Source of the DNA: Planctomycetota bacterium
GTDB taxonomy: Bacteria > Planctomycetota > JAFGQW01
Assembly (NCBI GenBank): GCA_016935485.1
Contig: JAFGQW010000216.1
Span: forward strand, 14,649 to 78,648
Direction of reading: 5' to 3'
DNA: 64,000 nucleotides
Shown: positions 7,380-44,820 of the stretch, piece after piece
How positions within the stretch are numbered: the stretch's first letter is position 1
Layout of the letters: each line of letters opens with the position of its first letter
Notes under the pieces: generated by a model
Seen by the model: the letters and a program-made list of their open reading frames with translations, nothing else
Told to the model about the DNA's origin: nothing
Database searches by the model: none
Translations under genes and position numbers: made by a program

Positions 7380-7534
7380 CCTGCGCTCGGCAACCTTCTT
7401 TCCCTGCGATCAGGCGGGCGGCCGCGACCGGCCGGGGCGGGCCTGATGAACAGGCTAGAAGGATAGGAGATCCTCGCGGATTCGCAAGCTCGAAGCCCGG
7501 AGATTCGGCGGCCGACAATCGGGCGGCGCGACTC

Positions 7535-7605
7535 GCCTGCGCCACGCTCACCCGCACCCGCACCCGCCCGCGCCACGCACTCTCCCGCGCGCGCGTCCCG
7601 GACAC
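7535..7605. repeat. single copy of GC-rich REP-like intergenic repeat (CCGCCCGCGCCAC...GCGCGCGCG...ACCCGCACCCGCAC family)
   Basis: Seen directly: cgcctgcgccacgctcacccgcacccgcacccgcccgcgccacgcactctcccgcgcgcgcgtcccg between sppA stop and mrpE start. Same motif family as the repeats at 16.6, 18.3, 29.0 and 42.5 kb. Confidence 0.6.
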
Positions 7606-16546: not shown

Positions 16547-16577
16547 CCGGCCGGATCCCCCTCGCTCGGGGATGACC

Positions 16578-16608
16578 CCGCGGAGGCGGCTCGCTCGCCG
16601 CCTCCGCG
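16578..16608 (+). terminator. GC-rich stem-loop immediately after acs stop (putative terminator)
   Basis: cgcggaggcgg-ctcgctcg-ccgcctccgcg: roughly 11-bp perfect inverted repeat, about 30 nt downstream of acs. No obvious U-tract in this high-GC context. Confidence 0.45.
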
Positions 16609-16609
16609 C

Positions 16610-16762
16610 ACCCCCGCGGGCGCACTCCCGCGGGCGCAATCCGCCCGCGCCACCCGAGCGCGCGCCTTTCGCGCGCGATACCCGCACCCGCACCCCCGCG
16701 GGCGCAATCCGCCCGCGCCACCCGAGCGCGCGCCTTTCGCGCGCGATACCCGCACCCGCACG
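16610..16762. repeat. tandem REP-like repeat, 2 copies of ~62-75 bp unit
   Basis: Unit cccccgcgggcgcaatccgcccgcgccacccgagcgcgcgcctttcgcgcgcgatacccgcacccgcac is repeated twice nearly perfectly. Each unit carries internal palindromes gcgggcg/cgcccgc and gcgcgcgc. Confidence 0.8.
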
Positions 16763-18240: not shown

Positions 18241-18600
18241 GAAAGGGGTCAGACCCCAGTCGTCACCCCCGCGGGCGCCCTCCGCCCGCGCCACGCAGCG
18301 CGCGCTCTCCGCGCGCGTCACCCGCACCCCCACCCGCACGCGCACGCGCACGCGCACGCTTGACCGCAATCGGGGGTCAGACCCCAGTCGTCACCCCCGC
18401 GGGCGCCCTCCGCCCGCGCCACCTCAGCGCGCGCCCTTCGCGCGCGTCACCCGCACGCGCACACGCACCCGCACCGCGCGCCCGACACCCCCACCCCCAC
18501 CCGCACTCTCACTCCTCTCCCCTCTCTTCTCTTCTTCGTGCTCTTCGTCTCCTTCGTGGTCTTCGTGTTTGACTCGCCCGCGCCGACCCCACTCCCCGCC
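18241..18600. repeat. composite intergenic repeat: two ~120-bp REP-like units (each starting with GGGGTCAGACCCC hairpin) followed by a CTTCGTG (revcomp CACGAAG) heptamer array
   Basis: Units at ~18247-18365 and ~18372-18480 are near-identical. 18520-18570 is cttcttcgtgctcttcgtctccttcgtggtcttcgtg (4x CTTCGTG at 9-10 bp spacing). It lies between convergent gdhA and the redoxin gene. Confidence 0.8.
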
Positions 18601-18612
18601 CTGCCCCGTCTC

Positions 18613-19191
18613 CTACCCGAAGTAGTCGGGCGCGTTGCCCGGCCGCCACTTGATGTTGCAGCCGATGCTCGGCTTCTGCTCCGCCGGTACCGGCCGCCCG
18701 GCCAGCACGGCTTCCAGCGCGCGCCGGAGATCCTCGCCGGTAACCGGCACCTCGTTTCCCGGCCGAGCGCCATCCATCTGCCCGCGGTAGGCGAGCTTCC
18801 GGTCCCGGTCGAAGAGGAAAAAGTCGGGAGTGCAGGCGGCACGGTAGGCCTTGGCCACCTCCTGGCTCGCATCCACCAGGTAGGGGAACGTGTAGCCGCC
18901 TTCCCGGGCCTCCACGGCCATCTTGTCGGGCGCATCCTCCGGGTAGGCCGCGAAGTCGTTGGAACTGATGGCGACGATCGCCACCCCCTGCTGCTGGTAG
19001 TCGCGGGCCAGCGCCGCCAGTCCCTCCCGGATGTGCTTGACGAACGGACAGTGGTTGCAGAGAAACGCCACGAGGAGGGCCGGTTTCCCGGCGAAGTCGT
19101 CGAGCGCGTGGATCCGGCCCGCCGGATCCGGCAGCCGGAAATCCGGGGCGGGCGTGCCGAGCGATAGCATCGTCGAGGAGGTCGCGGCCAT
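18613..19191 (-). CDS. thioredoxin-fold thiol-disulfide oxidoreductase (redoxin/AhpC-TSA-like)
   Basis: Start at Met 32 of the track ORF with upstream GGAAAGGAG Shine-Dalgarno. CxxC active site (FLCNHCPFVKH). Conserved PDFRLPD N-terminal motif of the redoxin family. Confidence 0.85.
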   Translation of the reverse strand: MAATSSTMLSLGTPAPDFRLPDPAGRIHALDDFAGKPALLVAFLCNHCPFVKHIREGLAALARDYQQQGVAIVAISSNDFAAYPEDAPDKMAVEAREGGYTFPYLVDASQEVAKAYRAACTPDFFLFDRDRKLAYRGQMDGARPGNEVPVTGEDLRRALEAVLAGRPVPAEQKPSIGCNIKWRPGNAPDYFG

Positions 19192-28974: not shown

Positions 28975-29200
28975 CCGCGGGCGCAGTCCGCCCGCGCCAC
29001 GCCAGCGCGTGCTCTTCACGCGCGCACCCCCACCCGCACCCGCACGCCCCATGCACCACCGGGACCGGGTCAGACCCCGTTCCCGCCCGCGCCACGCCAG
29101 CGCGTGCTCTTCACGCGCGCACCCCCACCCGCACCCGCACGCCCCATGCACCACCGGGACCGGGTCCAGACCCCGTTCCCACCCGCGCCGGCCTCGATTT
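28975..29200. repeat. tandem REP-like repeat, 2 copies of ~96 bp unit
   Basis: Unit cgcccgcgccacgccagcgcgtgctcttcacgcgcgcacccccacccgcacccgcacgccccatgcaccaccgggaccgggtcagaccccgttccc is duplicated almost perfectly right after the transporter stop. Contains GGGTCAGACCCC. Confidence 0.8.
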
Positions 29201-42337: not shown

Positions 42338-42359
42338 TGGACACGCTCCGGCGGCCTGC

Positions 42360-42680
42360 CCGGGACCGGCAGGTTTTCTTGAACACGAAGAACACGAAGA
42401 GAAGAGAAGGACACGAAGAAGAAGAAGAGAGGAACAAGAGGGCGAAGAAGCGGAGCGAGCGCGGAAGCACGGGTCGAGCACGAGCACGATGAAGAAGCGT
42501 GGCGCGGGCGGCCTGCGCCCGCGGGGCGTGCGGGTGCGCGCGTGCAGTGCACGCGCTGACGTGGCGCGGGCGGCCTGCGCCCGCGGGGCGTGCGGGTCCG
42601 CGCGACGCGTGAGCGTGCGGGCTGTGCACGCGGGATGGGCGTCCGCGTGAGGGTGCGCAGGAAACGCAGGAAGAGCGCTG
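42360..42680. repeat. composite intergenic repeat in inverted orientation relative to the 18.2-kb copy: CACGAAG heptamer array followed by two REP-like units
   Basis: 42371-42410 aacacgaagaacacgaagagaagagaaggacacgaag. Then gtggcgcgggcggcctgcgcccgcggggcgtgcgggtgcgcg duplicated (~42490-42620), which is the reverse complement of the CCGCCCGCGCCAC...ACCCGCAC motif. Confidence 0.8.
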
Positions 42681-42866
42681 AAGTGAGGGACACAACCGGC
42701 GCCTCTTTGCTTCGTCTCTTCTCTCCGCGCTCTTTGTGGTTGCCTTCTCTTCTTCCGCGAGGCGTCCGGCGAGCTCTACCGATCGCGGCACGGATCGGCC
42801 AGAATGGCACGGCCTGGCGGCGCTCGCCGCCGGTCGAACTCGAGACTCCTTGCGGACCCGACAGCC

Positions 42867-44624: not shown

Positions 44625-44820
44625 GGAAGAGGAAAGGCAACCACGAAGCCCACGAAGACACGACACGAAGACCACGAAGAGAAAGGAGCGAGGCGGCGAC
44701 AGCTGCAAGGCCATGGGGTCTGACCCCGCACCTTGCAGACCCCGACGTCCGCTCCTCCGGATGGGGCGCTCACCCGGCATGCCGCGCACCCGCCCCCTCA
44801 CCCCTTGCCCCTCCGCCCTC
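44625..44820. repeat. degenerate copy of composite repeat (CACGAAG x4 array + GGGGTCTGACCCC hairpin + degenerate ACCCGC-rich tail)
   Basis: ccacgaagcccacgaagacacgacacgaagaccacgaagag then ggggtctgaccccgcaccttgcagacccc...cacccgccccctcacccc. Lies between convergent ggt and the ABC permease. Confidence 0.65.

Follow-up and report, generated by a model that had tools for sequence, protein, structure and literature searches.

The stretch analyzed here, referred to as the window, comprises 64,000 nucleotides of a Planctomycetota bacterium (GenBank assembly GCA_016935485.1, contig JAFGQW010000216.1, positions 14,649 to 78,648 of the forward strand). Between gdhA and a convergent gene for an AhpC/TSA-like redoxin, its segment 18241–18600 contains GC-rich hairpins that resemble repetitive extragenic palindromes (REP-like units), next to an array of the heptamer CACGAAG. 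An initial annotation had described this segment as a composite of ~330 bp that occurs in three copies, and had suggested a mobile element resembling a miniature inverted-repeat transposable element (MITE) or else a structured small RNA or protein-binding array. We find that the composite is two unrelated kinds of intergenic repeat standing side by side in a permissive 3' intergenic region. In our preferred reading, to which we assign a probability of about 0.68, the segment is a pile-up of REP-like units specific to this genome and one arm of a widespread element, which in its full form is a cassette with a small nuclease gene between inverted heptamer arrays.

At the first locus (locus A), two REP-like units were delineated on the plus strand by sequence and repeat comparison (18245–18372 and 18373 to approximately 18506), in tandem with a period of 128 nt, where two units of ~120 bp had been annotated. 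Both open with GGGGTCAGACCCC, a 13-nt palindrome (18245–18257 in the first unit), are 100% identical over their first 50 nt, and contain CCGCCCGCGCCAC, a GCGCGCG/CGCGCGC hairpin and ACCCGCAC-type hexamers. Folding of the first unit gives two hairpins, CGCGGGCG-N5-CGCCCGCG and GCGCGCG-N5-CGCGCGC, ahead of a tail of (CRCRCS)n hexamers; the tail of the second unit, at 18448–18506, is of the CACCCG type. On the minus strand, the hexamer tracts ((CGCACG)n at 18310–18359 and (CACCCG)n at 18448–18506) read GTGCGGGTGGGGGTGGGGGTG, a potential G-quadruplex. The heptamer array, a solo arm on the minus strand found by pattern scan (18534–18567), has the sequence CACGAAG-AC-CACGAAG-GA-GACGAAG-AG-CACGAAG. 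Four CTTCGTG repeats had been reported on the plus strand: all four positions exist at a 9-nt period, with exact copies at 18534, 18552 and 18561, but the copy at 18543 is the variant CTTCGTC. Past the array lies a purine-rich tract, GAAGAGAAGAGAGGGGAGAGGAGTGAG (18507–18533, minus strand), which in alignment resembles the leaders between the 5' arm and the ATG of the full cassettes described below. Since CACGAAG is on the minus strand and the arm begins 45 nt past the stop codon (18613–18615) of the convergent AhpC/TSA-like gene, which lies on the same strand as the arm, the array is not oriented with gdhA, whose stop codon the annotation had taken as its reference.

Locus B, at 42.4 kb, opens with a terminator-like hairpin read from the sequence (CCTGCC-N7-GGCAGG-TTTT, 42355–42377, plus strand), located 3' of the ApbE gene and just upstream of the array. 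The array is a 5'-type arm (42384–42418, plus strand) with CACGAAG at 42384, 42393 and 42412 and one degenerate position, and lies 46 nt past the ApbE stop codon. It is followed by a (GAA)n-like purine-rich tract (42419–42496, plus strand), two 62-nt REP-like units on the minus strand (42498–42621), and a degenerate partner arm with a pyrimidine-rich flank (CTTCGTC ... CTTTGTG-GTTGC, 42710–42743, plus strand). This partner is predicted to pair with 42384–42440 (minimum free energy −198 kcal/mol, z = −3.2), and the locus as a whole is a degenerate inverted pair (42384–42743) with the two REP-like units in its interior. The reverse arrangement that had been noted here, an array followed by inverted REP-like units, is thus present, but with three CACGAAG heptamers instead of four and with units that lack GGGGTCAGACCCC; likewise, the position 3' of a gene holds for ApbE, but the locus is also 5' of the gene for gamma-glutamyltransferase (GGT). 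In L321, an independent Logan assembly, the sequence of locus B is recovered past its array and ends inside the first REP-like unit, a break that is expected of a multi-copy repeat.

Locus C, between the convergent genes for GGT and an FtsX/MacB-type permease, had been taken for a degenerate copy, but has the best array of the three. Its solo arm (44642–44679, plus strand, flank GCAAC) consists of four exact CACGAAG heptamers that start at 44642, 44651, 44664 and 44673, and lies 50 nt past the GGT stop codon. As annotated, GGGGTCTGACCCC follows 3' of the array, at 44715 (features spanning 44642–44727), within a hairpin of the form CTGCAAGG...GGGGTCTGACCCC...CCTTGCAG (44703–44738, no strand assigned; −21.6 kcal/mol, z = −3.4), but there is no REP-like unit. 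All three arrays in the window contain at least three heptamers of the type CAYRRAG at a 9–10 nt period, and each arm is sense to its upstream gene and starts 45–50 nt past the stop codon. An inverted partner within ~300 nt is present in degenerate form at locus B and absent at loci A and C. As at locus A, the solo arm of locus C is followed by a purine-rich tract similar to the leaders upstream of the ATG of full cassettes.

These repeat features clearly exceed chance expectation: the array pattern CACGAAGNNCACGAAG has 4 matches in the window vs 0.00 expected, the REP core GCGGGCGC-N3-CCGCCCGCGCCAC has 7 vs 0.04, and the palindrome GGGGTCWGACCCC with at most one mismatch has 4 vs 0.2. Arrays are found only at 18.5, 42.4 and 44.6 kb. 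The single heptamer CACGAAG matches 42 times in the window, mostly as codon-usage noise, and its meaning is confined to the arrays.

The REP core is located at 16.6, 18.3, 29.0 and 42.5 kb, in each case intergenic, and no heptamer array lies near 3 of its 7 copies, those at 16.6 kb and at 29.0 kb. The former belong to two 68-nt units between an acetyl-CoA synthetase gene and gdhA (16604–16760, plus strand), the latter to two 95-nt units with GGGTC(C)AGACCCC ends (28975–29175, plus strand); a partial or degenerate unit at 7.5 kb (ACCCGCACCCGCACCCGCCCGCGCCAC, 7520–7600, plus strand) also stands without an array. Directly past the acetyl-CoA synthetase stop codon, before the REP-like units, a strong GC hairpin without a T-tract (GCGGAGGCGG-N7-CCGCCTCCGC, 16576–16606) is probably the terminator of that gene. 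In each cluster the units are head-to-tail direct tandems of GC-only double hairpins that fold as predicted. Their length differs between loci (68 nt at 16.6 kb, 128 nt at 18.2 kb, 95 nt at 29.0 kb and 62 nt at 42.5 kb), and the GGGGTCWGACCCC palindrome is present in some units (18.2 and 29.0 kb) and missing from others. In the seven copies, the 8-bp stem of hairpin 1 is invariant while its loops vary, and hairpin 2 shows one compensatory change, from C-G to U-A. This is ordinary REP-like behavior, and the units are a routine kind of repeat. The core has no match in IMG/VR; the units are specific to this genome and amplified in tandem.

Because REP-like units occur without arrays at 16.6, 29.0 and 7.5 kb, and the array at locus C without a REP-like unit, the composite is not one unit: array and REP-like units are combined at two loci only (A and B), and the modules occur independently in the window, an outcome of the kind that the initial annotation itself had named as weakening its reading. 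It is accordingly improbable that array, purine tract, REP-like units and palindrome form a single MITE-like element that moves as a whole and is present in three copies. The agreement of loci A (read on the minus strand) and B in module order and relative orientation speaks for such an element, as does the presence of REP-like units or the GGGGTCWGACCCC palindrome beside each of the three arrays, but the similarity of A and B is limited to the modules, which are differently spaced, and the variable unit length fits poorly with a fixed element. Terminal inverted repeats are present for the array module and not for the proposed composite, which lacks target-site duplications as well. Furthermore, arrays at more than 240 other loci are unlinked to the REP sequence or palindrome of the window; GGGGTCWGACCCC has 0 matches in 1.05 Mb of other array-carrying genomes, which rules it out as a general companion of arrays. 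The sole near-match there is a related motif, ATTCCGGGTCTGACCCCGGC, in a Pirellulales metagenome-assembled genome (MAG; L096:509 and L096:4130). An analogous composite, of an array with GC-rich palindromic units of different sequence, does exist in 4–5 copies in an IMG/VR contig (L266), which suggests that arrays may recurrently associate with GC-rich hairpins in high-GC genomes. We read the proximity of the two modules as a result of co-accumulation or of nested insertion in 3' regions of such genomes that are permissive and rich in hairpins; a lineage-specific composite of array and REP-like units may also exist.

The heptamer arrays, in contrast to the REP-like units, are widespread. A scan of species-representative genomes (one genome per species) with the pattern CACGAAG-N2-3-CACGAAG-N2-12-CACGAAG, for which a few chance matches are expected by an estimate from its 21 specified bases, identified at least 120 array loci from ~20 phyla, including Acidobacteriota, Chloroflexota, Planctomycetota, Verrucomicrobiota, Desulfobacterota, Heliobacteria, Nitrospirota and Proteobacteria. 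The genomes include those of isolates, such as Herpetosiphon aurantiacus DSM 785 and Desulfobacter vibrioformis DSM 8776. An array has 3–4 heptamers with a period of 9–10 nt, followed by a purine-rich tail, and its typical form is an inverted pair, TTMAC-(CACGAAG-NN)x3 ... (CTTCGTG-NN)x3-GTKAA, around a variable loop. Among the matches listed, 47 strict inverted pairs have loops of 11–258 nt (6–300 nt by a looser definition), and solo arms outnumber the pairs (102 vs 47). The flank TT[A/C]AC, which was not imposed by the search, is conserved: over 189 arms, C is found at −1 in 90%, A at −2 in 69%, and T at −4/−5 in 55–59%. Resemblances to the DnaA box (TTATCCAC) and to CsrA (GGA), Hfq (ARN) and parS sites were dropped, as the flank has A and not T at −2 and arrays occur on both strands.

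Again among the matches listed, 118 of 140 elements are intergenic, and their flanking gene pairs are co-directional in 63 cases, convergent in 35 and divergent in 11. The genes next to them are of many kinds, with 195 Pfam families represented in 133 open reading frames (ORFs), which rules out an operator of one operon. The spacers that separate the heptamers of one arm are not complementary to those of the other (37% vs 32% in shuffles), which indicates that the heptamer sequence is kept rather than the pairing, and transitions in the arms preserve wobble pairing in 10 cases and break it in 17 (p = 0.25); neither result supports selection for a simple palindrome or an RNA stem. A fixed orientation of solo arrays relative to genes was not significant either (60 vs 43, p = 0.11), so that the sense orientation of all three arms in the window may be chance. 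With a period of 9–10 bp, about one helical turn, all heptamer sites of an array come to lie on the same face of the DNA. At least 120 further array loci were found in IMG/VR contigs, some of them adjoining phage head genes, a context that is only suggestive because IMG/VR contigs can include host DNA.

A gene was found enclosed by the arms at two of the array-selected loci (L066 and L020), where a 123-aa ORF of the family PF13366 (PDDEXK_3)/TIGR04256 (GxxExxY) is associated with them. Among 148 small ORFs beside arrays, the only recurring families were PDDEXK_3 and a TAT signal motif, with two members each, and PDDEXK_3 is the only recurring family enclosed between arms. In the reverse test, 80 metagenome loci with 81 GxxExxY genes were fetched by protein similarity alone, and both arms were recognized by a strict regular expression for 47 of the 81 genes (at least 58%); the remainder mostly have arms visible by eye, many of them degenerate, or complete flanking hairpins (L020, L155, L322). 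In the canonical arrangement, TTCAC-CACGAAG-NN-CACGAAG-NN-CACGAAG is followed by 0–23 nt and the ATG, and the stop codon by 1–14 nt and CTTCGTG-NN-CTTCGTG-NN-CTTCGTG-GTGAA, with the gene always reading from the purine-rich arm. Such a cassette is also present in the complete genome of an isolate, Lacimicrobium alkaliphilum. Variant heptamers co-vary between the two arms (CATGAAG/CTTCATG, CACAGAG/CTCTGTG, CACGGAG/CTCCGTG), and their types follow the clades of the GxxExxY protein.

The GxxExxY/PDDEXK_3 family comprises at least 7,997 clusters at 90% identity, and D67, E77 and K79, which form a D...E-x-K triad, are invariant in the alignment. An AlphaFold model of the protein (predicted local distance difference test score, pLDDT, 84.8) resembles a minimal PD-(D/E)XK fold, with weak fold matches to lambda exonuclease, Cas4 and I-Bth0305I (E about 0.01–0.2, template modeling score about 0.4–0.5); a sequence search found no solved structure. 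The family has been listed as of unknown function and with multiple horizontal transfers (Steczkiewicz et al., 2012). In the window, the gene and relics of it are absent: tblastn found nothing, and the best hidden Markov model hit in the six-frame translation has an E-value of 6.5. The arrays of the window are therefore gene-less derivatives only, namely one degenerate inverted pair (42384–42743) and two solo arms.

Gene-less copies are far more common than gene-bearing cassettes, and they disperse. An element of ~270 bp without a gene is ~92% identical between a delta-proteobacterial MAG (L013) and a Syntrophobacteraceae MAG (L048), with flanking DNA that cannot be aligned and unrelated flanking proteins; a copy in such unrelated contexts behaves as a mobile sequence and not as an operator. 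The proposed likeness to a MITE is thus supported for the heptamer-array module alone, as a dispersed inverted-repeat element that crosses phyla and has gene-bearing relatives. It does not extend to the composite, nor to target-site duplication: over 111 elements, with offsets of 0–8 and lengths of 2–8, there was no consistent excess of duplications over shuffled pairs. The array module is therefore not a classical MITE, and a classical MITE with target duplication is ruled out.

We favor DNA recognition as the function of the arrays. The heptamers would be sequence-specific sites that all face one side of the helix and are bound, most likely, by the nuclease of the cassette itself, and could define the ends for copying of the cassette by a homing-like or recombination-based route without target duplication; gene-less copies would then be non-autonomous passengers or targets. 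More tentatively, at somewhat below even odds, we propose that the inverted arrays of CACGAAG and its co-varying variants mark the ends by which an undescribed selfish element of most bacterial phyla is recognized, whose sole gene, the 123-aa GxxExxY nuclease, may bind the heptamers and drive duplication-free copying, and which would leave a larger population of gene-less and solo forms in bacterial and phage genomes, the three of the window included. The copies in the window are probably inert relics, possibly adding a hairpin or terminator function.

Several observations weigh against this picture. The flanks of the arms in the window (TTGAA, TCAAA, GCAAC) are atypical and match TTMAC only in part. 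The gene is rare in array-selected DNA (among the matches listed, 2 of ~140 genomic elements and 0 of 120 IMG/VR loci), so that arrays could have a role independent of it. The duplication test described above was negative, and no orthologous site was found in both an empty and a filled state. Finally, two of the three arrays in the window adjoin REP-like units, with order and relative orientation alike at both loci, and with the analogous composite of L266 this co-localization may be non-accidental.

The main rival to DNA recognition is a role of the arms in RNA, although the two are not mutually exclusive. By analogy with the 23S rRNA intervening-sequence repeats that are cut by RNase III, or with the 5'–3' fold-back that silences toxin mRNAs, CACGAAG and CUUCGUG might form, by pairing, a long stem with interruptions around the ORF, and the gene-less forms might be signals for processing, stability or termination in 3' untranslated regions. 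The arms abut the start and stop codons and are thus necessarily within any mRNA of the gene, heptamer types co-vary between arms, and the GAAGG/GAAGGA in the 5' arm is Shine-Dalgarno-like and could be masked (the inner heptamer is CACTAAGGAG in L121, L123 and L188). A preference of the elements for gene 3' ends, the arm-to-arm fold predicted at locus B, and the match of the ~440-nt cassette in size and layout to the 428–444 nt intervening sequence of Coxiella (PMC4990558) point in the same direction. The cassette is also co-oriented with its upstream gene in 47 cases vs 10, and with the downstream gene in 30 vs 23. Co-directional neighbors are, however, usual in bacteria (~70%), so that the 82% for the upstream gene is only a modest excess. 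Moreover, with non-complementary spacers the stem would be a series of 7-bp helices with internal loops of 2x2 or 3x3 between them, transitions show no bias toward preserving G-U pairs, solo arrays follow no significant orientation rule, and pairing alone leaves the same heptamer across ~20 phyla unexplained. The Rfam search suggested by the initial annotation gave 0 matches in the window at the gathering threshold, and none in eight array-bearing loci except one tRNA in L091. We therefore consider an RNA role doubtful, though a serious alternative.

Much less probable still is that the arrays are sites for a conserved host protein, either nucleoid-associated or a regulator, with no relation to mobility, and that GxxExxY genes merely use the same signal. 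Sites on one face of the helix, conservation of the heptamers but not of the spacers, and the large excess of arrays over genes would all suit such a protein. The neighboring genes are nonetheless functionally unrelated, divergent promoter regions are the least favored context, the heptamer type tracks the clade of the GxxExxY protein, and the 92% identical gene-less copy lies in unrelated contexts of two species.

Some loci deviate from the typical layouts. A Vicinamibacterales MAG (L107:6474-7728) has at least eight tandem heptamer-array hairpins with a period of ~155 nt, in a region that is partly masked as N, and a Bacteroidales MAG (L076:5261-5833) has seven tandem copies with a period of ~84 nt, with CACAAAG x3 as the left and CTTCGTG x3 as the right arm; G-U wobble pairing of these arms would be possible in bottom-strand RNA only. 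At L266, L227, L257, L096 and L105, arrays of other short words (CGCAGAG/AACAGAG, CACAGAT, (A)ACGGC(A), CGCGGAG and CGCAAAG) with a similar period share the intergenic regions of CACGAAG arrays, which suggests that heptamer arrays may form a superfamily whose specificities are many. At L036:7193-7271, L082:9-95 and L093:4608-4686, long perfect (CACGAAGNN)n tracts were rejected as array elements: they are read as coding His-Glu-Gly or His-Glu-Ala repeats that match the pattern by chance.

Among the gene-bearing loci, a SelA ORF (PF03841, E = 1e-116) at L151:124-1872 continues in frame through the 5' arm into the GxxExxY ORF, over 582 codons without a stop, and this upstream context apparently recurs in L185, L187, L189, L191 and L196, of which the flank sequence is partial; translation of such a cassette may be fused with, or coupled to, that of the upstream gene. 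At L322:6607-14299, in a MAG of the Brocadiia (Planctomycetota), the GxxExxY gene lies in a type I restriction-modification operon, between hsdR and hsdS/hsdM, with three tandem heptamer-array hairpins before it and more after it. At L020:974-1637 the gene stands between two complete ~110-bp hairpins with similar loops, an arrangement that is reminiscent of a composite transposon and unlike the gene-in-loop layout.

The association ties GxxExxY to an easily recognized DNA signature, its presumed binding site, and allows a role of the family as selfish nuclease cassettes to be tested. Thousands of puzzling intergenic hairpins, in phage contigs as well as in bacteria of soil and sediment, would find an explanation in this signature, which also provides a simple rule for annotating them. 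As to the window, the "composite element" is not a unit and its parts are probably relics.

A description of the heptamer-array/GxxExxY cassette was found neither in Rfam nor in the searchable literature, and its parts can be compared with several known systems. For the GC-rich units only, the likeness is to REP sequences and bacterial interspersed mosaic elements (BIMEs) mobilized by RAYT proteins, which are short imperfect palindromes, extragenic, clustered and multi-copy, with fixed stems and variable loops. The units of the window differ in that they are head-to-tail tandems of 62–128 nt with hexamer tails, whereas BIMEs alternate in orientation, and in that their sequence family is specific to this genome and without a match in IMG/VR. 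Repeated heptanucleotides in intergenic DNA are also known from cyanobacteria as short tandemly repeated repetitive (STRR) sequences. These are restricted to cyanobacteria and form long contiguous tandem tracts of period 7, while the CACGAAG arrays have a period of 9–10, 3–4 copies per arm and inverted pairs.

Bacterial MITEs such as Correia, RUP and Nezha are, like the array element, short, non-coding, intergenic inverted repeats in multiple copies, with ends that also occur on a rarer gene-bearing relative, and with the same copy found in unrelated contexts. The array element nevertheless lacks their target-site duplication, has ends made of heptamer arrays instead of a unique terminal inverted repeat, and is spread over ~20 phyla with a partner cassette that encodes a 123-aa PD-(D/E)XK_3 nuclease and no recognized transposase. 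Small nucleases of the PD-(D/E)XK fold are found in selfish insertions as the homing endonucleases I-Ssp6803I and I-Bth0305I, the catalytic domain of the latter being among the weak fold matches, and a spread of the cassette without target duplication fits homing. Against this likeness, the fold similarity is weak and no defined target or empty site was found for the cassette; to our knowledge, no known homing-endonuclease gene is flanked by comparable heptamer arrays.

The cassette further offers a possible parallel to the long-unexplained intervening sequences in the 23S rRNA genes of Leptospira, Coxiella and Salmonella. These carry an ORF for an S23p/four-helix-bundle protein, and share with the cassette a length of ~430–440 nt and a single short ORF directly bordered by inverted repeats. 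They are likewise scattered across phyla, are thought to be horizontally transferred, and their ORF is suspected of a role in mobility (PMC4990558). They differ in location (helix 25 or 45 of the rRNA, whereas arrays are intergenic between protein-coding genes and the window has no rRNA), in their ends (a nearly perfect RNase III stem of ~28 bp, as opposed to heptamers with non-complementary spacers) and in their ORF (S23p instead of a PD-(D/E)XK_3 nuclease); no S23p/four-helix-bundle ORF (PF05635) was present among the 133 and 148 ORFs neighboring arrays. The cassette thus apparently represents an undescribed element, with kinship to selfish ORF cassettes of the intervening-sequence type on the one hand and to MITE-like derivatives on the other.

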